64,000 bases of DNA from Candidatus Omnitrophota bacterium (GCA_003154195.1 PMCS01000030.1:123446-187445); one strand, 5' to 3'; shown: positions 7,231 through 57,610, counted from the stretch's first letter. Program-made: numbers and translations. Notes: generated from the sequence alone by a model not told the origin.

Positions 7231-7443
7231 GAACATAAAAATTCCCCTTAAGAATCAAAGAAAGCCATAGGATGATTGTAGAAATTTTTAGCCACTAAGA
7301 CACAAAGGCACTAAGATTATACATCGAGCTAAAGACAAAGAACATTATGATTAATTTCATTATAAATTGTAAATTTATCATTTCGGTACCTGTTATTTTT
7401 TCTTAGTGTTTTGGTGCCTTTGTGGCGGAAAAAAGGGGGTAAG

Positions 7444-7818
7444 ATGTTAAAATTCAGTAAATCTCATGAATGGGCGAAGATAGACGGCAGTACGGCAATG
7501 ATGGGGATTACCGATTACGCCCAACATTCGCTGGGTGATATTGTTTTTGTGGAATTACCTAAAGCGGGGACAAAGGTAACCCAGTCCGGCCGTTTAGGGA
7601 CAATCGAATCGACCAAGGCAGCCAGTGAATTATATTCGCCAATATCCGGGGAAGTTATTGAGGTTAACAAAGAGCTCGCCGGCAAGCCTCAGCTGGTAAA
7701 TGAAGACCCTCTCGGCAGGGGTTGGATGATTAAAATTAAAATAGCTAATCAGAAAGAAAGCGAAGGTTTAATGGACGAAGCGCAGTATAGAGAGTTTGTA
7801 GAAAAAGAAAAACATTAA
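7444..7818 (+). CDS. gcvH: glycine cleavage system H protein
   Basis: Lipoyl-lysine context ESTKAASELYSPISGEV. The RBS AAGGGGGT precedes ATG 7444; the ORF track TTG at 7411 was rejected. Confidence 0.9.
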   Translation: MLKFSKSHEWAKIDGSTAMMGITDYAQHSLGDIVFVELPKAGTKVTQSGRLGTIESTKAASELYSPISGEVIEVNKELAGKPQLVNEDPLGRGWMIKIKIANQKESEGLMDEAQYREFVEKEKH

Positions 7819-7948
7819 ATAACCTAAAAACTGAAAAACTGAAGAAGTAAGAAAAAGATATAAAACTAGTTTCAGTTTCATGGTTTTTATATTTTCTAGT
7901 TTTTAGTTCTTCAGTTTTTAGGTTTTTACGTTTTTTGGTGCATTAATT

Positions 7949-9292
7949 ATGCCTTACATCCTAAACACCGAAGCCGACATCAAGGAAATGCTTAAAGCGA
8001 TAGGGTTAAATTCGCTCGATGAGCTTTTCCGCCGGTTGCCCGGGCAAATCAGATTAAAAGAACCGCTGAAGATCGCCGCCGGCCTCAGCGAGTATCAAGT
8101 TAAAAGCGCTGTTGCTGCTTTGGCGGCAAAAAACACCCCGGTCGATGGTTTTAATTCTTTTTTAGGCGCGGGTTGTTATGACCACTATATACCTGCGGCA
8201 TTACCGTCGATAATTTCGCGTTCAGAATTTGTTACCGCTTATACTCCCTATCAGGCGGAAGCCTCTCAGGGGTCTTTGCAGGCGATTTATGAGTATCAAA
8301 GCTATATCTGTCTTTTGACGGGCATGGATGTTGCCAATGCTTCGATGTTTGACGGCGCTTCCAGTATGGCGGAAGCGGCGTTGATGGCTTTGCGCATAAC
8401 CGGCAGGGATAAAATAGTTGTTTCCGGATCAATCCATCCCGAATTCCGGCAAACCTTAAAAACATATTTATCCGGTTTTGATTTCACGATAAAAAACGTC
8501 GGCTTTGATGAGCATGGTTTTGTCGATACCGGAAGCTTAAACGAGGCTATTGATGGCCGGTCGGCGTGTTTTATCGCGCAGAGCCCTAATTTTTTCGGGT
8601 TAATCGAAGACGCGGCAAAAATCGGCAGGATGATTAAGGAGAAGGGAGCCATTTTCATTATGGTTGCCAATCCTTTGTCTCTGGCGATTTTAAATGACCC
8701 GGCTTCCCTGGGCGTGGATATTTTTTGCGGCGACGGCCAGCCTTTAGGCGGAGCGCTGAATTTCGGCGGCCCTGCTTTCGGCATTCTGGCGACGCGAAAC
8801 GAATATTTGCGCCAGTTGCCGGGAAGGATCGTCGGTAAGACTACCGACCGGCAGGGGAAAGAAGCGTATTGCCTTACGATGCAGGCCAGAGAACAGCATA
8901 TCCGGAGAGAAAAAGCGACCAGTAATATTTGTTCCAACCAATCGCTTAACGCCATCGGCGCGGCGGTTTATCTTTCCCTTATGGGTAAAGAAGGGTTGAC
9001 CGGCGCGGCGCTGAGATCTTTAGAAATGGCGCGGTATCTTCATGAGTGTTTAAAGAATGTAGGAAAAGTTAAAATTAAATTTTCATCGCGATTTTTTAAC
9101 GAGTTTGTCTGGGAAATCGAAGGCGCAAAAAAAATTGTAAAGAAACTTTATAAAAAAAGAATAATCGCCGGTTTTCTTTTAGGCGAATTCTATCCCAAAT
9201 TAAAAAATTGTATTTTGAGTTGTTGCACTGAGAAAAAAAGTAAAGGCGATATTGATAATTTTATTGAAACATTGAAAAATGTAATTTGTTGA
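7949..9292 (+). CDS. gcvPA: glycine dehydrogenase (decarboxylating) subunit 1
   Basis: GDC-P N-terminal subunit signature. It follows gcvH in the operon. Confidence 0.9.
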   Translation: MPYILNTEADIKEMLKAIGLNSLDELFRRLPGQIRLKEPLKIAAGLSEYQVKSAVAALAAKNTPVDGFNSFLGAGCYDHYIPAALPSIISRSEFVTAYTPYQAEASQGSLQAIYEYQSYICLLTGMDVANASMFDGASSMAEAALMALRITGRDKIVVSGSIHPEFRQTLKTYLSGFDFTIKNVGFDEHGFVDTGSLNEAIDGRSACFIAQSPNFFGLIEDAAKIGRMIKEKGAIFIMVANPLSLAILNDPASLGVDIFCGDGQPLGGALNFGGPAFGILATRNEYLRQLPGRIVGKTTDRQGKEAYCLTMQAREQHIRREKATSNICSNQSLNAIGAAVYLSLMGKEGLTGAALRSLEMARYLHECLKNVGKVKIKFSSRFFNEFVWEIEGAKKIVKKLYKKRIIAGFLLGEFYPKLKNCILSCCTEKKSKGDIDNFIETLKNVIC

Positions 9293-9403
9293 GCCGGTTG
9301 GGATTGTTGAGCCTGTTAGTGCCGTTAGAAGATTTTAACGCTACAACCGGCTCAACCGACTTAACTGGCTCAACGAAAACACGATTTTAGTTCAGGTTAT
9401 TTT

Positions 9404-17645: not shown

Positions 17646-17849
17646 TTCGGCTACTGTCTCAATCTACGCCCCCGCCATCCCATAGATGGCGAGGTCTCGT
17701 CAATTCGTTTAACGAATTGACGGACTTCGGGCTTGATTTCGGTGAAGTCTCATTAAATATTTCCTTGCCCCCCGTAGTATTTCTATTATAATAAAATATA
17801 ACCTGGAATATAATTATAAAGCATAGAGTTCTCTTTTCAGGATATCGGG

Positions 17850-17990
17850 GAATCAGGATGTCAGGATTTGGGGATTGGGAAATCGGGGGATTAGGGAAAT
17901 GCCGAAGAAGCGATAGCTGTCAGCCAAATATCCCAATGCCCTAATTTCCAAATCCCAATTGCCTAATATCCTAATTCCTTTATTATTACA
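17850..17990. repeat. long imperfect palindrome built from GGGATT(A)GGG / CCCTAATCC-type short repeats (family B-like)
   Basis: Left arm GGATTTGGGGATTGGGAAATCGGGGGATTAGGG; right arm CCCAATGCCCTAATTTCCAAATCCCAATTGCCTAATATCC. Confidence 0.45.
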
Positions 17991-18041
17991 CTTGGTTAGC
18001 GCCGAAGGCACGCTAAGCTCAGTTAAAGGGGTTATAAACCA

Positions 18042-19751: not shown

Positions 19752-19799
19752 TAAAAATAACATAAAAACCAAAAAACTGAAAAACCAAAAAACTTAACA

Positions 19800-20174
19800 A
19801 TGAGCGATATTTTTAGATTCAGAGAATTTCCGGTATATAAAGACGCAAGAAAATTGAGAAAAGATTTAAAGCTGCTAAGTAAAGAAAAATTCCCCGGAAC
19901 CGAACAATATTGTTTAACATCTCAGTTGTGGAGAGCATTGGATTCGATTATTCTCAATATAGCCGAGGGTTCAGACAGATGTTCAGATACGGATTTCAGT
20001 AGATTTTTAAACAATTCCTTAACCTCCGTTAATGAAGTAGCCGCCCGTTTGGATTGTGCTTTAGATGATGGCTATATTACTGTAAAAGAGCAAGACATAT
20101 TTATTCCCTTGGCTGAAAATATTGCGAAACAGCTAAAGGCTTTTAGTTCAAAAGTACGAAATGATAATGGTTAG
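19800..20174 (+). CDS. four-helix-bundle protein (23S rRNA intervening-sequence protein family)
   Basis: 124 aa. The YKDARKL...FPGTEQYCLTSQLWRALDSIILNIAEGSDR...FLNNSLTSVNEVAARLDCALDDGYI pattern matches PF05635-type proteins. It is flanked by inverted A/T-rich repeats at 19752-19799 and 20175-20215. Confidence 0.7.
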   Translation: MSDIFRFREFPVYKDARKLRKDLKLLSKEKFPGTEQYCLTSQLWRALDSIILNIAEGSDRCSDTDFSRFLNNSLTSVNEVAARLDCALDDGYITVKEQDIFIPLAENIAKQLKAFSSKVRNDNG

Positions 20175-20215
20175 TTTCTCGGTTTTTAAGTTTTTTCGTT
20201 TTTAGGTTACCTACC

Positions 20216-35863: not shown

Positions 35864-35935
35864 TCAAAATAATGCTTACGCATTATTTTGATTAGTCGTA
35901 AACGAAAACGTAAAAACAAAACCTGAAAAAATTCT

Positions 35936-36622: not shown

Positions 36623-36653
36623 CTTTTATTTTTTGCTGCGCAAAAAATAAAAG
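36623..36653. repeat. AT-rich palindrome, family A (CTTTTATTTTTTGCTGCGCAAAAAATAAAAG)
   Basis: Perfect inverted repeat. The same core occurs at 39659-39683, 46241-46265, 40053-40080, 52713-52740 and 47497-47525. Confidence 0.6.
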
Positions 36654-44837: not shown

Positions 44838-44880
44838 TTTTTATCCTATTTTTTGTTGCAATTGCAATAAAAAATAGGAT
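44838..44880. promoter_or_regulatory. 40-bp palindrome containing TTGCAATTGCAA (candidate operator)
   Basis: ATCCTATTTTTTGTTGCAATTGCAATAAAAAATAGGAT sits directly upstream of the PaaX-like gene. A related palindrome is at 45838-45880. Confidence 0.45.
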
Positions 44881-44889
44881 AATAATTTT

Positions 44890-46158: not shown

Positions 46159-46240
46159 TGCGCGGGGTGGGAGTTGAACCCACATGGGGGTTACCCATAC
46201 GCTTCTGAGGCGTACGCGTCTGCCATTTCGCCACCCGCGC
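46159..46240 (-). tRNA. tRNA-Leu (anticodon CAG)
   Basis: The reverse complement GCGCGGGTGGCGAAATGGCAGACGCGTACGCCTCAGAAGCGTATGGGTAACCCCCATGTGGGTTCAACTCCCACCCCGCGCA aligns well with bacterial tRNA-Leu, including the long variable arm. Confidence 0.85.
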
Positions 46241-46289
46241 TAATTTTTTGCTGCGCAAAAAATTAGAGCTCCATCCGCTTCGCGGATGG
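46241..46289. repeat. composite family A element (AT palindrome TAATTTTTTGCTGCGCAAAAAATTA plus hairpin CCATCCGCTTCGCGGATGG)
   Basis: Inverse arrangement of the element at 39637-39683. Confidence 0.6.
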
Positions 46290-50367: not shown

Positions 50368-50410
50368 GTTATTTTTTTACCACGAAGACACAAAGTCGAG
50401 AAAATCAAAA

Positions 50411-50537
50411 ACCGGTTAAGGTAATGGTAAGGATGCCAGTATAGGTTAGGGTAAAGGTAAAGGCTTTAAAATTAGTATCAGCCTTTACCTTTGCCTTAGC
50501 CCAAACCGGCTTCCTTACCCTAACCCTAACCTTAGTG
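50411..50537. repeat. about 125-bp imperfect palindrome built from GGTAAGG / GGTTAGGGT short repeats (family B)
   Basis: Arms GGTTAAGGTAATGGTAAGG...GGTTAGGGTAAAGGTAAAGGC and GCCTTTACCTTTGCCTTAGCCC...CCTTACCCTAACCCTAACC. Confidence 0.55.
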
Positions 50538-50604
50538 TTCGTGCTTGTTGTGGCTAAAATATTTATAGTTTTGTTATTATATTTGGTTTGTGAGAGGTAA
50601 TATT

Positions 50605-52710
50605 ATGGCGCGTAAATATCCGTTGGAAAAAATCAGGAATATCGGAATCGTGGCGCATATCGACGCCGGTAAAACTACTACTACCGAGCGGGTGCTTTTC
50701 TATACGGGAAAATCTCATAAGTTGGGAGAGGTCCATAACGGCAGCGCGGTTATGGATTGGATGAAGCAGGAACAGGAAAGAGGAATCACTATTACCAGCG
50801 CTGCTACTACTTGTTTCTGGCAAGATTGCAGTATTACTATCATTGATACTCCCGGGCATGTCGATTTTACTGCGGAGGTGGAAAGGAGTTTACGCGTTCT
50901 TGACGGAGCGGTCGTTCTTTTTTGTGCCGTAGGCGGCGTAGAGCCGCAGAGTGAAACAGTGTGGCGCCAGTCGCAGAAATATAATGTCCCCAAGGTTGTT
51001 TTTATTAATAAAATGGATCGAGTGGGGGCTGATTTTTTTATGGTTTTAAAAGAAATACAGCATAATCTGGGCGCTAACGCCATACCTTTGCAGGTTCCTA
51101 TTGGGGCAGAAGAGAATTTTCGCGGCGTGATTGACTTGATCGAGATGAAGGCTTATATCTATGAAGAAGATTCATTGGGCAAGGAGTTTCGTATAGAAGA
51201 TATTCCTGCGGATTTAATAGCGATCGCTAAAGAATACAACCATAAGACTGTGGAAAAAGCCGTGGAGCTTGATGACAAATTGATGGAAAAGTATCTTGAG
51301 TCACAGGAATCGATTACCCCCGAAGAATTAAAAGCGGCAATCCGTAAAGGAACGGTTGCCAACAAGGTTGTTCCGGTGATCTGCGGCGCGTCTTTTAAAA
51401 ATAAAGGCGTACAGAAACTCCTTGACGCGATTATCGATTATCTTCCTTCGCCGGCGGATTTACCGCCGGTTACCGGCCACGATCCCCGGGATACCGATAA
51501 GCAGCTCGTCAGAAGTTGCGACGATAAGGAACCGTTCAGCGCGTTGGCGTTCAAAGTCCAGGCTGATTCTCACATGGGAAAACTTGTTTATTTGCGTGTT
51601 TATTCCGGCAGTCTTCCCGCCGGTACCTATATTACTAATGCCACAAAAGATAAAAAAGAAAGAATCAGCAGGATCTTCCAGATGCATGCCAACCAGCGCC
51701 AGTCTCAAGCTGAAGTTAATGCCGGCGATATTGTAGCGGTGGTAGGTTTGGAAGATACGATAACCGGCGATACTCTTTGTGATGAAAATAATCCGGTTAT
51801 ATTAGAGGCGATAGAATTTCCTACCCCGGTTATTTCCATAAGCGTCGCGCCTAAGACGCGCGCCGACCAGGATAAGCTGGGTAAGGGATTAATGCGGCTG
51901 GCAGAAGAAGACCCCACGTTCAATGTCGAGTCGGACCAGGAAACCAATGAAACTATTCTTTCCGGCATGGGCGAGCTACACCTGGAGATAATTGTCGACC
52001 GCTTAAAGCATGAATTCGGCGTTGAGGCTATCGTGGGTAAGCCTAAGGTTGCCTATAAGGAAACGATTACTCATAGCGTTGAAGAGGAATATAAGCACAT
52101 TAAGCAGTCCGGCGGCCGCGGCCAATACGGGCATGTTATTTTAAAGCTTGAGCCGGCCGATCCCGAGACCGGTTTCGAATTTATCAATGCCGTGGTAGGA
52201 GGAAGGATCCCCCGCGAATACATTCCGGCCGTAGAAAAAGGCGTAATCGAAGCGATGAAAGAAGGCGCTTATGCCGGCTATCCGGTTGTGGACGTGAAAG
52301 TCACGCTGCTCGATGGTTCATTCCACGAAGTTGATTCCAGCGAGATAGCCTTTAAGATTGCCGCCATCACTTGCTTCAAGAAAGCTTTCTTAAGGTGTTC
52401 TCCAATTTTACTTGAGCCGGAAATGTCTATGGAAATAATTTCTCCCCGAGATTTTGCCGCCAATATCGTCGGCAATCTTTGTTCCCGCCGGGGAAAAGTT
52501 TTAGGCATGGAGGAAAAGGTCGGCCAGCAAGTTATCGCTGCCAACGCTCCGCTTTCGGAGCTATTCGGTTATACTACCACTTTGCGTTCGCTTTCCAGCG
52601 GCCGCGCCAACTATTCGATGCACTTCGAAAAATACGTCCCCGTGCCGTTTGCCATCGCCGAAGCCGTAAGGGAAGAACGGGCAAAAGAAAAAGCGGCGCG
52701 TAACAAATAG
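50605..52710 (+). CDS. fusA: translation elongation factor G
   Basis: G domain [17 protein letters not shown] and NKMD motifs. 701 aa. Confidence 0.95.
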
Positions 52711-52869
52711 GTTATTTTTTACGCAGTAAAAAATAACCTTGGACCGCTGGCGCGGATCGGGAAAGTTCCGGTTCAGGCATTTTTCCCGGTTTGGCAAACT
52801 CTTTCAAAATACCTCAACTCCCCGAGTCAAATCAATCCGGGAAAATCGATAACCCTTTATTCTCCTTCG

Positions 52870-53000
52870 CTGAAGTTCGCCTTCGCCAAGACTTCGGCGA
52901 GATTCCTCCGAAGCTCGAAGAGCGAAGGAGAACTTCGGCGAAATCTCTCCGAAGCTAAAAAAAAGCGAAGGAGGACTTCGGAGAAATGAAGCTATATGTC
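52870..53000. repeat. three roughly 40-bp tandem direct repeats (CTTCGGCGAGATTCCTCCGAAGCT... variants)
   Basis: Each unit carries a GAAG...CTTC hairpin. A family A-like palindrome GGTTATTTTTTACGCAGTAAAAAATAACC lies at 52711-52740. Confidence 0.5.
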
Positions 53001-53053
53001 GCGGGGAGGAAATTTGGGCTTCATTATTTTCTCCTTGGTGGTAAAATCTTATT

Positions 53054-53878
53054 GTGATTATTACCGATAAAAATAAAAATATTCTTTATCGCAAATGGGT
53101 GGCCGGCAACACGAAGGAGGTATTTCTCCTGGTGCACGGCCTGGGTGGCCATAGCGAGCGCTGGGAAGAATTTGCGAAGTTCTTTTTGTCTTACGGCATA
53201 AGTTCTTACGCGATAGAATTGAGGGGTTTCGGCGAAACACCGGAACTTAAAGGGCATATCCCGTCATTTGAACAATATTACGGCGATATCCTTGCTCTCT
53301 GCCAAGTAATAAGGAATGAAAACCCGGATAAGAAGATTTTTCTGGCCGGGGAAAGCCTGGGTGGTTTACTTGCTTTTAAAATATCCTGCCGGTATTGGGA
53401 TTTTTTTAGCGGGTTGGCCTGTATCGCTCCGGTTTTTTCCGACAGATTAAAGGCTTCGCTGTTGGAGTATTTGCGGGTATTCTTTGCTCTTTTTTTTAAT
53501 CCCCGCAGACAATTCATCGTTCCTTTAGACGCGGCGATGCTTACGCGTGATCCCGTTTATCAGGAAAAGCTAGATACCGACAGCCGGGAGCATCGTTTTG
53601 TCACCAGCCGGATGATTTTTAATATCTTTGCCTTGCAGGCGCAAACACGATTTTCTAAAAACACCATCAAGCTGCCGGTATTGTTTTTGCTGGCCGGGGA
53701 TGACCGGGTAGTCAAGAATAGCGCCGGCCGGAAAGTTTTTGAGCGTTTGCAGTCGGAGGATAAAACCATAATCGAATATCCCGGCGCGCGCCACGCGCTT
53801 TCCATCGATTCGGACCGGGATAAAATGTTTAAGGATATTCTGGAGTGGGTGAGGCAAAGGCTGAAGGATGAGGGATGA
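53054..53878 (+). CDS. alpha/beta hydrolase (lysophospholipase / monoacylglycerol lipase-like)
   Basis: GESLGG nucleophile elbow and an HGLGGHSERW motif. GTG start. Confidence 0.7.
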   Translation: MIITDKNKNILYRKWVAGNTKEVFLLVHGLGGHSERWEEFAKFFLSYGISSYAIELRGFGETPELKGHIPSFEQYYGDILALCQVIRNENPDKKIFLAGESLGGLLAFKISCRYWDFFSGLACIAPVFSDRLKASLLEYLRVFFALFFNPRRQFIVPLDAAMLTRDPVYQEKLDTDSREHRFVTSRMIFNIFALQAQTRFSKNTIKLPVLFLLAGDDRVVKNSAGRKVFERLQSEDKTIIEYPGARHALSIDSDRDKMFKDILEWVRQRLKDEG

Positions 53879-53899
53879 GAGAAGAAGGACGAAAGAATA

Positions 53900-54045
53900 G
53901 TGTTGGAGTGTCAGAGAAAAACCGAAGGACGTGGGACGTCCGCGGTAGTAACCGCTGGGACGAAGGACGAGCGTCAAAGTGTCAGGGCGTCAGAGCGGTT
54001 TTTAACTATGACGCTGTGACGCTATGACACTTTGACACTATAATA
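53900..54045. repeat. palindromic short-repeat element (GTCAAAGTGTCAGGGCGTCAGAGCG / CGCTGTGACGCTATGACACTTTGAC)
   Basis: Inverted arms built from GTCA/GACG-type short repeats. Confidence 0.45.
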
Positions 54046-54057
54046 ATTGCGGTGATT

Positions 54058-55539
54058 ATGGAGTATATCTTAGCCATTGACCAGGGGACGACCGGCAGCC
54101 GTGCTGTTGTCTACGATAAATACGGGAAAAAAATCGCCGCTTCTTATCATGAATTTAAACAGTATTTTCCCCGGCCCGGCTGGGTTGAGCATAATCCGCG
54201 GGAAATCTGGCAAAGCGTAAACAATTCTATCCAGGAAGTCCTTAAAGACATTCCCGCCGCTTCGATCGCCGCAATCGGTATTACCAACCAGCGTGAAACA
54301 ACAATCGTCTGGGACAAGGATACCGGTAAGCCCGTCTACAATGCCATTGTCTGGCAGTGCCGGCGTACTGCCGCGGCTTGTGACGCGTTGAAAAATAAAA
54401 GAGGCGAAGGGGAATTTTTCCGTTCGCGCACCGGCCTGCCGATTGACGCTTATTTCAGCGCGACCAAGCTGGCCTGGATCCTGAAAAATGTCCCCGGCGC
54501 TTTGCCTAAAGCAAAAAAAGGAAAACTTCTATTCGGCACAACCGACAGCTGGGTTTTATGGCAATTGACCGGCGCCATGGTTCACGCCACTGATTATACC
54601 AATGCCGGCCGCACCATGCTGTTTAATATCAACAAATTAGAGTGGGATAAGGATATTCTTGGTAAATTCAATATCCCTTCGCTAATACTGCCGCGGGCTT
54701 TGCCGTCTTCGGGCATCTTCGGCGTAAGCGCTAAAATTGGAAGACTGGGGCAGGGCATCCCCATATCTGGTATTGCCGGTGACCAGCAGGCGGCATTATT
54801 CGGCCAGGCCTGTTTCGCGCCGGGTACGCTGAAGAATACCTATGGCACCGGGGCATTTATGCTGCTCAATACCGGCAAAAACCGGCCGGTCTCAAAATAC
54901 GGCTTGATCACTACTCTTGCCTGTGGCCCGCAAGCGGAGCCGGTTTATGCCTTGGAGGGATCAATCTTTATCGCCGGCGCGGCAATCCAGTGGCTGCGCG
55001 ACGGGCTTAAGATTTTAGACAAAGCTTCCCAGTCGCAGGATTTAGCGTTAGCGTTAAAAGACAATGAAGGCGTATATTTTGTCCCGGCGTTGACCGGCCT
55101 GGGCGCGCCTTATTGGGACCAGAATGCCCGGGGCCTGATAAATGGTATCACGCGGGGAACCACTCGCCAGCACCTGGCGCGGGCGGCGCTGGAAGCGATG
55201 TGCTACCAGACTATGGACGTGATGACGGCGATGAAAAAAGACAGCGGCTTGAGCATAAAAGATTTGAAGATTGACGGCGGCGCGTCCGCCAACGATTTTT
55301 TATGCCAGTTCCAGGCGGATATCTCCGGGGTAAATGTCCTGCGTCCGCGGGTCATCGAGACTACTTCCCTGGGCGCGGCGTACCTGGCGGGTTTGGCCGT
55401 AGGGTATTGGAAAAATACCGGCGAGATTAAAAAATGCTGGCGGCTCGACCGCGTTTTTAAGCCGAAGATGCAAAGAGCGCAAGCGCGTAAGTTCTACGAA
55501 GGGTGGCAGGGGGCGGTAGCCAAGACGTTAACTATTTGA
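54058..55539 (+). CDS. glpK: glycerol kinase
   Basis: FGGY family. N-terminus YILAIDQGTTGSRAVVYD. Confidence 0.9.
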   Translation: MEYILAIDQGTTGSRAVVYDKYGKKIAASYHEFKQYFPRPGWVEHNPREIWQSVNNSIQEVLKDIPAASIAAIGITNQRETTIVWDKDTGKPVYNAIVWQCRRTAAACDALKNKRGEGEFFRSRTGLPIDAYFSATKLAWILKNVPGALPKAKKGKLLFGTTDSWVLWQLTGAMVHATDYTNAGRTMLFNINKLEWDKDILGKFNIPSLILPRALPSSGIFGVSAKIGRLGQGIPISGIAGDQQAALFGQACFAPGTLKNTYGTGAFMLLNTGKNRPVSKYGLITTLACGPQAEPVYALEGSIFIAGAAIQWLRDGLKILDKASQSQDLALALKDNEGVYFVPALTGLGAPYWDQNARGLINGITRGTTRQHLARAALEAMCYQTMDVMTAMKKDSGLSIKDLKIDGGASANDFLCQFQADISGVNVLRPRVIETTSLGAAYLAGLAVGYWKNTGEIKKCWRLDRVFKPKMQRAQARKFYEGWQGAVAKTLTI

Positions 55540-55548
55540 TCAGTCGGT

Positions 55549-55932
55549 TTGGGCAGAAATGTTGTATTTTTGTCGCGCTCCCGCAATTTTGACATCAATT
55601 GTGTCGACCCGATACAAAATAATAAAATATCCAATAATCATGAAATAAATCATAGCGGGCGGACACACCGGTCCGCCCTTACAATATCCGGTATAATCCA
55701 ATGGTTTAAAACAATGACAACGAATAAATATATTCAAAATATCGAAAATAATAATTGGTCGTCATTTGTCAAATGTCTATGGCAACGTAATTTCCACGAC
55801 CATGTTATACGTAACGACAAATCGTTGGGTAAAATCCGGGAATATATAATCAATAATCCTGCAACCTGGAATAATGATATTGAAAATCCCGATAGAACAG
55901 GCAGTATGGAATCAAAATTGATTGAGGTTTAA
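55549..55932 (+). pseudogene. remnant (C-terminal part) of a REP-associated tyrosine transposase (RayT / IS200-like HUH family)
   Basis: IQWFKTMTTNKYIQN...WQRNFHDHVIRNDKSLGKIREYIINNPATW matches the characteristic RayT C-terminal segment. No N-terminal HUH motif is present, so the gene is truncated. Confidence 0.45.
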
Positions 55933-55992
55933 CCAACTTATCCAGCGGATTTTTGCGTCAGACAAAATATGTAAAATAAAAATTAAAAATTT

Positions 55993-57420
55993 ATGCTTTA
56001 CGACGTTATCATCATCGGCGGCGGAGTGGCGGGGACGGCAATCGCGCGGGAGTTATCGCGGTTCCGGATATCAACCGCTCTTTTAGAAAAGGAAGAAGAG
56101 CTCGCTTTTGGCGTTTCTAAATCCAATAGCGGTATCATCCACCCGGGGACGCAGAATCCACCCGGTTCTTTAAAGGGGCAGCTTTGCGTATGGGGGAACC
56201 GGCTGACCAGGGAAATTGCCGGAGAACTGGGCGTTGATTTTAAGGAAGTGGGAGAATTAATCGTCGCGTTTAACCAGGGAGAGCTCGCGCAGCTGCAGCA
56301 GATTAAAAAAGACGCGCAAGCCCTGGGCGTGCCGCGCTTGAAAATCGTCAACCGCGCCTGGCTCGATAAAAACGAACCCAATCTTTCGCGGGAAGCGATC
56401 GCCGCGCTTTACGCGCCTACCGCGGGGATCATCAGCCCCTATCGGCTGGTTTACGCTTTAGCCGCCGACGCTTTAGCTAACGGCGTGGAAATTTTTACGC
56501 GGGCAAAAGTGCAGAATATCCGGCGTAAGGGCGACTGTTTCGAGGTTCATACCACGCGCGGCATTTTCGACGGCCAATATATCGTTAATGCCGCCGGGCT
56601 TTTTGCCGACGAAGTGGCGGCAATGGCCGGCGCCGGTAATTTTACGATCACCCCGCGTAAAGGCGAAGAATTTTTGTTGGATAAAAAATGCCGCGATTTA
56701 ACCAACCACCTTATTTTTCCTTTGCCATCAAAGGCTTCCAAGGGTATTCTGGTTATAAAGACAAGCGACGGCAATCCGATGATCGGCCCGACTGCCTGCG
56801 AGGCGGCCGGCAAAGATGATTTATCGACTACCGATGAGGGGTTGGCGAATGTTCTGGCGGCGGCAAAAAAACTGGTTCCCTCAATCGACGGAAAGGATAT
56901 CATCGCTTACTTCGCGGGATTGCGTCCTATCGCGGGGGATGATTTTATCATTCGCGCCGAAGAAGGCGAGCGGAAATTTATTAATGTCGCCGGTATCCAG
57001 TCGCCGGGGTTGACCGCGGCGCCGGCAATTGCGATTGTTGTGATCGAGACCTTAAACAAAAACGGCTTGGCCTTTAAACGAAAATCTCTTTTTAAGCAAA
57101 ACTGTGTGGAACCCGGCCATTTGTTTTCCGTACCGTTGGCGAAGACAAAAGAATTCATCGAGAAAGACCCGGCTTACGGCGATATCGTTTGCCGCTGCGA
57201 ACTTGTTTCGGCCAAAGAGATAAAAGATGCCGTATCTGCCGGCGCGGCAACGCTGGACGGTATAAAATTCCGCACCCGCGCCCAGGCCGGACGCTGCCAT
57301 GGGAGTTTTTGCACGACCAGGATCATGAAAATTTTGGCTGAGAGTACAAATAAAAAATTAACAGAAATTACCAAACGTGGCAAAGGGTCGGAGATCGTGA
57401 AGGGGGATAGAGGTGGATAG
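55993..57420 (+). CDS. FAD-dependent oxidoreductase, GlpA-like (anaerobic glycerol-3-phosphate dehydrogenase subunit A-like), with a C-terminal BFD-like [2Fe-2S] domain
   Basis: DVIIIGGGVAGTAIA motif; C-terminal CRCELVSAKEIKDAV...CHGSFC. Confidence 0.75.
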   Translation: MLYDVIIIGGGVAGTAIARELSRFRISTALLEKEEELAFGVSKSNSGIIHPGTQNPPGSLKGQLCVWGNRLTREIAGELGVDFKEVGELIVAFNQGELAQLQQIKKDAQALGVPRLKIVNRAWLDKNEPNLSREAIAALYAPTAGIISPYRLVYALAADALANGVEIFTRAKVQNIRRKGDCFEVHTTRGIFDGQYIVNAAGLFADEVAAMAGAGNFTITPRKGEEFLLDKKCRDLTNHLIFPLPSKASKGILVIKTSDGNPMIGPTACEAAGKDDLSTTDEGLANVLAAAKKLVPSIDGKDIIAYFAGLRPIAGDDFIIRAEEGERKFINVAGIQSPGLTAAPAIAIVVIETLNKNGLAFKRKSLFKQNCVEPGHLFSVPLAKTKEFIEKDPAYGDIVCRCELVSAKEIKDAVSAGAATLDGIKFRTRAQAGRCHGSFCTTRIMKILAESTNKKLTEITKRGKGSEIVKGDRGG

Positions 57421-57435
57421 TAAAAAGTAATAATC

Positions 57436-57568
57436 GGCTAAGGCTAAGGTTATGAAGCCGGTATAGGTAAAGGTGAGGGTTAGGGCTTAAAACAATTTTT
57501 TAGCCTTAACCTTGACCCTAACCCTAACCTATACGGGCATCATTACCCTTACCCTAACCATTTTGTAT
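57436..57568. repeat. about 130-bp imperfect palindrome of GGCTAAGG / GGTTAGGG / CCCTAACC short repeats (family B)
   Basis: Arms GGCTAAGGCTAAGGTTATG...GGTGAGGGTTAGGGC and GCCTTAACCTTGACCCTAACCCTAACC...CCCTTACCCTAACC. Confidence 0.55.
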
Positions 57569-57610
57569 ACTATGCCGGCGTCGTAACCATAGCCTTTACC
57601 GGAGTATATT

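Follow-up and report, generated by a model that had tools for sequence, protein, structure and literature searches.

Foldback elements with tandem-unit arms at operon junctions of an Omnitrophota genome and their likeness to the terminal stems of S23p cassettes

Introduction

Intervening sequences in 23S rRNA, as found in Coxiella burnetii and Leptospira, are regarded as selfish, horizontally acquired elements, and ORF-less versions are present in other bacteria (PMC4990558). The intervening sequence of Coxiella has a 28-bp stem with tandem GACAGAT heptamers, and the RNase III cuts in it have been mapped (PMC4990558). The tandem, G-rich heptamers GGGAATC and GGGGA(C/T)T of Xanthomonas and Nostoc were described by Rehm et al. 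in 2015, and their function is unknown (PMC4692102). In Xanthomonas, 70-75 convergent inverted pairs of these heptamers are present per genome; the pairs are capable of forming stem-loops and are enriched between same-strand ORFs (PMC4692102). The terms S23, xcc0516, intervening and four-helix are all absent from the text of that paper. TAACTGA heptamer arrays of Beggiatoaceae, Cyanobacteria and Bacteroidetes are intergenic, lie just upstream of start codons and have a patchy distribution across phyla, which suggests horizontal spread (PMC4679880). Unlike the elements described below, these arrays are almost all direct repeats, with one inverted case reported (PMC4679880), and they therefore form no hairpins.

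In this study, hairpins with arms of short tandem units are described in a stretch of 64,000 nucleotides from a Candidatus Omnitrophota bacterium. This whole stretch is called the window, and coordinates are counted from its first letter.

Two homologous foldback elements

Two of the hairpins, E1 and E2, are true homologues and are here called Family B. Both lie in the gene context given by an earlier, sequence-only reading of this DNA, and E1 is enclosed by an additional outer clamp.

50414-50531, unstranded: E1, Family B foldback element between a glgC-like gene and fusA
57434-57562, unstranded: E2, Family B foldback element between the GlpA-like and GlpB-like genes
50378-50395, unstranded: left half of the E1 outer clamp, CACnAAG units (CACGAAGACACAAAG)
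50534-50560, unstranded: right half of the E1 outer clamp, CTTnGTG units (CTTAGTGTTCGTGCTTGTTGTGG)

The arms of E1 are 52 nt long, 81% complementary (inverted repeat I1) and separated by a loop of 14 nt, Family B loops being just 14-24 nt; units of the types GGTTAAGG and GGTAAAGG stand opposite CCTTTACC and CCCTAACC. E1 and E2 align end to end with about 68% invariant columns, a common non-repeat core and three compensatory pairs. Scored by the Family B models, E1 gives a profile E-value of 3.7e-41 and 125 bits with the covariance model, and E2 gives 135 bits with the latter. The unit period in both is mostly 6-7 nt instead of the 7-9 bp proposed earlier, and the units are GGTTARG and GGTAAAG (GGTWARG), which have no G3 runs. 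The supposed likeness to telomeric TTAGGG repeats comes down to about three units of one among many unit types. In the fold of the spacer, the two clamp halves pair with each other; the CACnAAG pattern occurs 6 times against 0.08 expected, and the CTTnGTG unit type recurs at 7285-7432 and in the sequences L080, L129 and L063.

Using the profile and the covariance model, a third copy was found in the same genome, 3.5 kb upstream of the window (L168, 515-658), together with a weak fourth copy (L168, 1864-2001). Relatives are present in three other Omnitrophota (L100, L155 and L072), at non-orthologous operon junctions. Their near-invariant core reads GAAGCCSGTAT / AWACSGGCWTC, and this non-repeat core and the block order are kept in at least three copies here and in three other genomes, at unrelated sites. 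The sequences of E1, E2 and E4 (see below) do not differ between independent metagenome assemblies, of which five cover E1, four E4 and three E2.

Other hairpins with tandem-unit arms

Five further hairpins in the window have arms of this kind:

17847-17980, unstranded: E3, hairpin between the secretin gene and the T2SS-E gene, GGGGATT / GGGAATC-type units
53897-54041, unstranded: E4, composite hairpin between a hydrolase gene and glpK (inverted repeat I9)
7813-7940, unstranded: ORF-less hairpin between gcvH and gcvPA, AAAAACTG / CAGTTTTT units
9285-9377, unstranded: hairpin between gcvPA and gcvPB, TGTTGAGCC / GGCTCAACC units (inverted repeat I7)
7285-7432, unstranded: CACnAAG / CTTnGTG inverted arms between gcvT and gcvH (inverted repeat I5)

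The earlier reading had placed E1 to E4 in one family of long hairpins, for which it looked to folding energies better than those of shuffled controls and to further copies in the genome. Long hairpins are formed at all four sites: with 200 dinucleotide shuffles per site, none of the shuffles was as good as E1 (50405-50545; -64.9 kcal/mol, z -9.05), E2 (57425-57575; -55.6 kcal/mol, z -4.93), E3 (17835-17995; z -3.84) or E4 (53880-54050; z -7.33). Further copies exist too, as the one at L168 515-658 demonstrates. The single family holds for E1 and E2, but E3 and E4 match neither their profile nor their covariance model. What E3 and E4 have in common with E1 and E2 is architecture and not sequence: degenerate units of 6-9 nt follow one another along one arm, and the second arm is complementary to the first. 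In E3 the period is 8, and the sequence includes GGGGAATC, GGGGATT and GGGAAATC; in E4, GTGTCAGR and GGACGAA units stand opposite CTATGACR. The hairpins at 7285-7432, in which the inverted arms surround an 84-nt AT-rich spacer, 7813-7940 and 9285-9377, which folds at -51.4 kcal/mol, are of the same architectural class as E1-E4. Each site or family in this genome has its own unit sequence, and the units are degenerate. The unusual class of intergenic hairpins with short-unit repeat arms that had been proposed is real.

A detector that demands inverted and short-range direct 6-mer matches together is passed by seven regions of the 64-kb window and by no window in five shuffles. The density of such regions differs strongly by genome, with 7 in 64 kb here versus 37 in 2.18 Mb elsewhere. 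Across six Family B sequences, 90% of the structure cells pair versus 81% in shuffles, and only 24-47% do so in slid controls. The pairing or covariation score was reached by 0 of 500 shuffles and the number of pairs in which both bases had changed by 18 of 500; compensatory change is seen in 8 of the 29 pairs. Four elements fold better on the plus strand and four on the minus strand, with about equal quality, and G-U pairs total 33 versus 28 by strand. Since both strands fold about equally, the folds carry no specific sign of a function of the sense transcript at the RNA level.

In the minimum-energy folds predicted for Family B, neither arm folds back on itself. A scan for intrinsic terminators flagged no element, the tails being TTAGTGTTCG, ATTTTGTATA and ATAATAATTG and not U runs. 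In a scan of the window against Rfam 15, the gathering threshold was passed by three tRNAs and by no element, and a permissive scan gave just sub-threshold matches to eukaryotic miRNA hairpins. The window contains no rRNA, and the elements are all between protein-coding genes.

Compared with the heptamers of Rehm et al., the hairpins likewise have short tandem G-rich units in convergent inverted pairs between same-strand ORFs. The E3 unit is nearly identical to theirs, and E3 agrees with the GGGNATC / GGGGAYT patterns and has G3 tracts. The E1 and E2 units, on the other hand, do not fit these patterns and have no G3 runs, without which no stable quadruplex forms. Further differences are that one unit dominates a Xanthomonas genome, whereas here the unit changes from site to site or from family to family, and that Family B has a conserved non-repeat core.

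An S23p cassette in the window

Between the T2SS-E and T2SS-F genes, inverted tandem-unit arms enclose a gene:

19758-19786, unstranded: left arm of the S23p cassette, AAAAACYN units
19800-20174, plus strand: S23p gene in the cassette loop, encoding a PF05635 / TIGR02436 four-helix-bundle protein ('23S rRNA intervening sequence protein')
20181-20209, unstranded: right arm of the S23p cassette, NRGTTTTT units

The protein matches PF05635 (E 3.7e-23), TIGR02436 (2.1e-20) and PDB 2GSC (XCC0516), and has homologues at 70-79% identity in several phyla. The two arms form a 26-bp stem that is present in both the minimum-energy and the centroid fold. The arms of the ORF-less hairpin 7813-7940 resemble those of the cassette, the alignment scores being 26, 22 and 27, where shuffles reached no more than 22, 17 and 23.

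Eleven PF05635 genes from at least five phyla, including XCC0516-type genes of Xanthomonas, were sampled. Tandem 7-8-nt arrays are present beside all 11, with inverted arms in 8 of them. When nine of these genes were scored, leaving out the two from Xanthomonas, the array thresholds were passed by six, compared with no more than 4.8% of the 2198 control ORFs. The S23p subfamily tracks the unit sequence across phyla, and in Xanthomonas an S23p gene lies between accB and accC, enclosed by GGGAATC arms.

Family B elements are similar to S23p intervening sequences in that terminal inverted repeats form a long stem with tandem units in the stem region; in the intervening sequences these are heptamers of varying number, and the loop can hold a PF05635 gene. 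The elements here differ in that they lie between protein-coding cistrons and not in 23S rRNA helices 9, 25 or 45, and Family B has no ORF in the loop and arms about twice as long, cassette 19758-20209 being the only one with an ORF. No S23p gene lies within or adjoining any Family B copy; it is the common architecture and genomic niche that suggest a link between the two.

Insertion into compact operons

Every element in the window has same-strand genes on both sides, and these belong to known operons (gcvT-H-PA-PB, glp and T2SS). The junctions occupied by Family B are unrelated to each other: pdxJ/acpS, glgC-like/fusA, glpA/glpB, pheS/pheT and NIF3-like/dnaG. In the two nearest relatives, the genes of the same hydrolase-glpK-glpA-glpB operon abut or overlap. 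The hydrolase gene and glpK abut there but are separated by a 179-nt spacer with E4 here, and the GlpA-like and GlpB-like genes overlap there but are separated by a 190-nt spacer with E2 here. Because the protein termini are conserved relative to these relatives, the 179-nt and 190-nt spacers are additions in this genome, and E2 and E4 are therefore lineage-specific insertions. The best of the relatives has 71-72% amino-acid identity, so the timing and polarity of insertion depend on a pair of distant outgroups. E1, E2 and the L168 copy show no direct target-site duplication at their flanks.

Proposed origin and alternative explanations

The terminal stems of S23p cassettes, as seen in the Coxiella 23S rRNA intervening sequence, in 19758-20209 and at Xanthomonas accB-accC (GGGAATC arms), match the elements in architecture. 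It is proposed, with a probability of about 0.5, that Family B consists of dispersed, ORF-less foldback insertion elements of about 130 nt with this architecture, which are co-transcribed and cut by RNase III like rRNA intervening sequences. Family B would be one of several such families at same-strand junctions of housekeeping operons in this Omnitrophota genome. Each element is an imperfect hairpin in which arms of degenerate 6-7-nt units surround a conserved core helix. As the glp comparison shows, the elements came as insertions into formerly compact operons; they would be transcribed together with the operon. RNase III excision, shown for the rRNA elements, would extend to the present ones by analogy, and their 40-50-bp imperfect dsRNA stem is probably cleaved. 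Cleavage would make the insertion tolerated, leaving the flanking cistrons on separate RNAs with stem-protected ends. The ORF-less copies may be the non-autonomous kin of ORF-bearing cassettes.

An unlikely alternative is that these are REPIN-like elements moved by a Y1 (IS200-like / RAYT) transposase, with the hairpins as ssDNA substrates, as for proteobacterial REP doublets, and with S23p unrelated to Family B. A candidate enzyme is present in the same operon:

55549-55932, plus strand: probable IS200-like Y1 transposase remnant in a 453-nt insertion between glpK and glpA

In the relatives, the glpK-glpA spacer is 72 nt or negative. E4 and E2 are each about 1.5 kb away from the remnant. With such a gene in the operon, the elements could have been moved by a different enzyme. 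Y1_Tnp genes are also found in related genomes, namely in L188 beside the same operon and in L157 flanked by REP-like hairpins, and the equal fold quality of both strands suits an element acting at the DNA level. Like REP and REPIN sequences, the elements are imperfect hairpins of about 100 nt, intergenic or intercistronic, in several copies. However, the remnant matches Y1_Tnp in its C-terminal half only and under the Pfam cut-off (E 0.0017; 18.9 bits against 23), and it has no flanking Family B arms; nor, in the part of the genome covered, was any other transposase gene seen with such arms on its flanks. The hairpins near the transposase gene of L157 are short stems of the ordinary REP type, without tandem-unit arms, and Family B has tandem-unit arrays and one shared core helix instead of two inverted REP singlets (short palindromes). 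To our knowledge, tandem-unit arms are not a described feature of REPINs. They are known from the Foldback (FB) transposons of Drosophila, which have long inverted arms of short tandem repeats and, in some copies, coding loops. Family B resembles these and MITEs as non-autonomous inserted elements with inverted arms, but is bacterial and much shorter, with no target-site duplication or transposase evident.

It is quite improbable that the hairpins are intercistronic RNA structures that arose where they now lie under selection by the host and set the relative stability or processing of operon segments, like REP/BIME in enterobacterial operons. Such structures would fit the positions between same-strand genes of known operons, the compensatory changes that keep pairing and the identity of E1, E2 and E4 across assemblies. 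However, in the two nearest relatives no elements are present at the orthologous junctions, and the same family occupies unrelated junctions in other genera; for these reasons, a gene-specific version of the regulatory role envisaged earlier is also unlikely. In addition, G-U versus A-C pairs show no sense-strand bias, and the core (helix 2) is near-invariant on both arms, beyond what structure alone requires.

It is very unlikely that the palindromes are functionless, non-mobile by-products of replication slippage and template switching between the arms of short hairpins. The degenerate, site-specific units, the differing unit number among Coxiella strains and the strong density difference between genomes would agree with such an origin. 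Slippage is disfavoured, however, by the core and block order kept across copies, genomes and unrelated sites, and by the matching unit types of S23p subfamilies across phyla.

Quadruplex switches, in which a G-rich arm as DNA or RNA quadruplex controls the downstream gene, are the most improbable: the suggested quadruplex stands at 17870-17896 in E3 (canonical G3+ motif, G4Hunter 1.88), and GGGAATC and GGGGAYT repeat oligonucleotides fold to quadruplexes in vitro (PMC4692102), but E1, E2 and E4 reach maxima of only 0.88, 1.16 and 0.60 without a canonical motif of four G3+ runs, other class members have A-rich or A/C-rich arms without G runs, and each G-rich arm has its full complement just 14-24 nt further on, so that the hairpin would be expected to win.

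Implications for S23p cassettes

Returning to the reading of Family B as foldback insertion elements akin to S23p cassette stems, a broader and more tentative extension is possible. There might be a widespread but so far unrecognised class of mobile 'intervening-sequence cassettes' in which the autonomous members carry the Avd-like pentameric S23p (PF05635) and tandem-unit palindromes are the non-autonomous ones. The 7-8-nt arrays would then be putative multivalent binding sites for the cognate S23p, and the joint change of protein subfamily and unit sequence across phyla would follow from this. RNase III excision of the stem would make such cassettes harmless at operon junctions and at the tips of rRNA helices, which would be why they target these places. 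If true, this cassette class would explain the STRR-like heptamer arrays of cyanobacteria as well, together with the GGGAATC arrays of Xanthomonas, for which there is no explanation so far.

Hairpin-forming elements in the window

The elements described here are hairpin-forming insertions at operon junctions that belong to several families, one of which occurs in both ORF-bearing and ORF-less forms. Long hairpins at four sites had been proposed by the sequence-only reading, and this is borne out by folding, as none of 200 dinucleotide shuffles folded as well at any of the sites.

Hairpins at the four sites (element, position, region folded, energy, z-score)
E1, Family B hairpin, 50414-50531: folded 50405-50545, -64.9 kcal/mol, z -9.05
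E2, Family B hairpin, 57434-57562: folded 57425-57575, -55.6 kcal/mol, z -4.93
E3, other hairpin, 17847-17980: folded 17835-17995, -58.4 kcal/mol, z -3.84
E4, other hairpin, 53897-54041: folded 53880-54050, -66.1 kcal/mol, z -7.33

The arms contain short-period repeats, with autocorrelation peaks at 6 nt (E1) and 8 nt (E3 and E4), and Tandem Repeats Finder reported CCTAAC x3.2 and TAACCC x3.8. For detection, an ungapped hairpin finder was over-strict (three elements only) and a sliding-window RNA-fold detector was too noisy, obtaining at least 24 pairs from any sequence; a 6-mer detector that demands inverted as well as short-range direct matches was used instead. It marked seven regions in the window and no passing windows in five shuffles. 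The additional regions are 7813-7940, 9285-9377 and 52866-52990, and inverted arms are also present at 7285-7432. The region at 52866-52990, downstream of fusA, is a repeat class distinct from the tandem-unit palindromes, consisting of a different, 43-nt unit (x2.3) with a CTTCGG...CCGAAG hairpin in every unit.

Other palindromes were also observed. A/T-rich perfect stem-loops (e.g. GTTATTTTTTACGCAGTAAAAAATAAC) are found at 890-918, 1027-1051, 1067-1091, 35864-35891, 36623-36653, approximately 46239-46266 and 52711-52737; at least some lie directly 3' of a stop codon, such as 52711 after the fusA stop, and they may be of the terminator type or another repeat family. A near-perfect 48-nt palindrome at 44838-44885 (TTTTTATCCTATTTTTTGTTGCAA / TTGCAATAAAAAATAGGATAATAA) ends 4 nt ahead of a PaaX-like regulator gene and looks like a candidate operator.

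The arms had also been described as telomere-like and capable of forming G-quadruplexes. Real G-quadruplex potential is present only at 17870-17896 (G4Hunter 1.88), whereas the scores of E1 (0.88), E2 (1.16) and E4 (0.60) are low, and the telomere and G-quadruplex reading is rejected for these three. In the right arms of E4 (54016-54044, GTGACG-17-TATAAT) and E3 (17959-17986, TTGCCT-16-TATTAT), sigma-70-like sequences occur as consensus matches only, and the CTNTGACR units of E4 are similar to -35 boxes. No Rfam family was matched by the elements in a scan of the window. A permissive Rfam scan of 50439-50506 and 57447-57548 returned only sub-threshold eukaryotic miRNA precursor models (mir-548, MIR5020), probably due to the generic shape of a long hairpin.

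Family B and its conserved core

The four sites had been taken as one family, which holds for E1 and E2, which are homologous, but not for E3 and E4, which are unmatched by profile (nhmmer) and covariance models built from E1 and E2 and have only their architecture in common with Family B. E1 and E2 align over their full length with approximately 68% invariant columns, have a non-repeat block in common (GCCRGTATAGGT and its mirror) and show compensatory change at three pairs; how the two are oriented with respect to each other is ambiguous. With the same two models, further copies were found, including a third in the same genome, approximately 3.5 kb before the window begins (L168 515-658, between pdxJ and acpS). 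A fourth, weak copy is located at L168 1864-2001, and relatives are present at three other Omnitrophota loci (L100, L155 and L072).

Across six sequences, the core helix is near-invariant in both arms (GGYWAYGAAGCCSGTAT ... AWACSGGCWTCRTWACC), and the outer and inner helices are variable with compensation, both sides having changed in 8 of 29 pairs. Pairing is found in 90% of the structure cells, compared with 81% in shuffles and 24-47% when partner columns are slid. The observed pairing or covariation score was matched by none of 500 shuffles, and 18 of 500 had at least as many pairs with changes on both sides.

In other Omnitrophota loci, the 6-mer detector marked 37 regions in 2.18 Mb, or approximately one per 59 kb, compared with one per 9 kb in the window; element-dense loci include L129, L151 and L072. 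The unit sequence is site-specific, with one arm poor in C and the opposite arm poor in G. Some unit types are shared between genomes; one of them, CACnAAG / CTTnGTG, makes an outer clamp around E1 as well.

Insertion at operon junctions

The source of the window, which has a G+C content of 44.6%, is an uncultured Candidatus Omnitrophota bacterium. The closest matches of its fusA and GlpA-like proteins are Omnitrophota MAGs, with at most 71-72% amino-acid identity, and when fusA was used to scan genomes and metagenomes, and GlpA to search proteins, identity rose above 72% only in contigs 100% identical to the window, which are present in six metagenome assemblies. Because the best identity is 71-72%, the orthology comparison is based on distant relatives and paralogous copies rather than on a close relative. 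One metagenome assembly (L005) lacks 37 bp in the 5' portion of the hydrolase gene (window 53105-53141) and matches at 100% elsewhere; this may be a population variant or an assembly artefact.

Family B copies occupy unrelated junctions between genes on the same strand.

Family B junctions
glgC-like / fusA: window (E1)
glpA / glpB-like: window (E2)
pdxJ / acpS: L168, same genome
pheS / pheT: L072, other Omnitrophota locus
NIF3-like / dnaG: L100, other Omnitrophota locus

In the two nearest relatives, the hydrolase-glpK-glpA-glpB-DUF1667 operon is compact and the protein termini are conserved. In addition, all three spacers of the gcvT-H-PA-PB operon are occupied by an element.

Spacers of the glp operon (relatives; window; occupant)
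hydrolase / glpK: 0 nt (abutting); 179 nt; E4
glpK / glpA: 72 nt or overlap; 453 nt; sub-threshold Y1 transposase remnant
glpA / glpB: overlap of 8-20 nt; 190 nt; E2

The remnant in the 453-nt insertion (55540-55992) is a truncated Y1_Tnp-like (IS200/RAYT) ORF whose E-value of 0.0017 does not reach the cut-off. The same insertion contains a G+C-rich hairpin (55657-55678, minus strand). The elements could have been mobilised by a Y1 (RAYT-like) transposase, given this truncated ORF between glpK and glpA and the Y1 transposase genes present in relatives, but no Family B arms flank the ORF, and REPINs are not known to be built from tandem units. In another Omnitrophota genome, an intact Y1 transposase (L157 8494-8979, minus strand; Y1_Tnp, E 9.6e-17) has ordinary REP-like hairpins on either side. 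The orthologous junctions are empty and one family occurs at unrelated sites, both of which contradict an origin of the elements as regulatory stems evolving in place. Pure slippage with template switching cannot account for a core that is conserved yet not made of repeats.

S23p cassettes

S23p proteins ('23S rRNA intervening sequence protein', also 'four helix bundle') are relatives of Avd, a retroelement accessory protein, that occur on their own. The ORF at 19800-20174, between the T2SS-E and T2SS-F genes, is an S23p gene (PF05635 / TIGR02436), and in both minimum-energy and centroid folds it is enclosed by a 26-bp stem of AAAAACYN units. The similarity of this stem's arms to those of the 7813-7940 hairpin, which lacks an ORF, exceeds shuffle expectation. 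Homologs of the window S23p with 70-79% identity are found in Parcubacteria, WOR-1, Dehalococcoidia and Nealsonbacteria. This cross-phylum identity exceeds the same-phylum identity of the genome's housekeeping proteins, which argues for horizontal spread of the S23p gene.

Eleven PF05635 genes from at least five phyla were compared: the window gene, those of L129, L147, L175 and L179, two in L169, and those of Pseudanabaena and Calothrix plasmids and two Xanthomonas genomes. Tandem 7-8-nt arrays adjoin all 11 and form inverted arms in 8. The usual setting is between same-strand operon genes (T4SS genes, cas6|cas4, accB|accC); the exception is the Calothrix gene, which is antisense and flanked by two opposite-strand genes. 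When the nine genes other than those of Xanthomonas were scored, six passed the array thresholds, versus at most 4.8% of 2198 control ORFs. The flank statistic, which works on exact 6-mers, has little sensitivity to arms rich in A, and the window cassette scores only 5. Across phyla, S23p subfamily and unit type go together, with RARAACYN units accompanying an S23p group at 68-75% identity and TTAGCT / AAAAGCT units a group at 47-74% identity.

On the Pseudanabaena plasmid pPg_01 (L181), the four-helix-bundle gene between cas6 and cas4 has (AAAAGCT)x17 upstream and (AAAAGCC)x10 downstream, with an inverted AGCTTTT array farther upstream, all within the cas operon. In WOR-1-type contigs (L175-L178), the S23p gene (299-703) is preceded by at least 14 direct GAAGAACN units and followed by units in the same direction; no inverted partner is visible, and it may lie beyond the contig end. 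PIN-domain ORFs are located within inverted tandem-unit arms at L013 8580-9071 (Pfam E 6.5e-7) and L064 7168-7602 (7.1e-10), and therefore stem loops can hold cargo other than S23p.

Comparison with known elements and proposed mechanism

Intervening sequences, REP/REPIN elements and G-rich heptamer arrays are already known kinds of elements. The 23S intervening sequence of Coxiella, with a 28-bp terminal stem and an S23p ORF (PMC4990558), has the same anatomy as the S23p cassettes described here; it carries a variable number of tandem GACAGAT heptamers, and RNase III cuts have been mapped in its stem (PMC4990558). In Xanthomonas, 70-75 inverted GGGAATC pairs per genome have been reported (Rehm et al., PMC4692102), in a text that does not mention S23, xcc0516, intervening or four-helix. 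In two Xanthomonas loci (L183 and L186), an XCC0516-type S23p gene in the accB-accC spacer has arms of GGGAATC units (CGGGAATCGGGAGTGGAGAATCGGGAATCGG / CCCATTCCCCATTCTCGACTCCCTATTCCC), which connects the heptamer repeats already published with an S23p cassette; for XCC0516 itself, a pentameric structure has been solved (2GSC). Searches of the accessible literature did not turn up an identification of these arms with an S23p cassette. Nor did they turn up S23p cassettes with ORF-less relatives at mRNA operon junctions, tandem-unit arms as a cross-phylum common feature of S23p cassettes, or an earlier description of the Omnitrophota palindromes or of S23p with tandem repeats.

The elements would be co-transcribed with the operon and, by analogy with rRNA intervening sequences, the stem may be cut by RNase III, which would make the insertion tolerable and uncouple the flanking cistrons. 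A strand-asymmetry test (G-U versus A-C) for an RNA role of the sense strand gave no bias, with the better fold on the plus strand for four elements and on the minus strand for four, and 33 versus 28 G-U pairs. This symmetry is as compatible with an element acting as DNA as with a symmetric double-stranded RNA substrate. Intrinsic terminators are ruled out because the elements have no U tail, and a terminator scan flagged none of them.

Significance

These insertions link three puzzles: the nature of intervening sequences, the role of S23p, and the heptamer arrays of Xanthomonas and cyanobacteria, which have no accepted function. The linking facts are a stem of tandem units around S23p genes in at least five phyla, an ORF-less version of the same build in several families within one genome, and the presence of such stems in essential operons, among them accBC, pheST, gcvTHP and glp. 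If true, this would define a class of insertions tolerated by bacteria within operons and would explain the unusually long intercistronic spacers in Omnitrophota, which would be useful for genome annotation.
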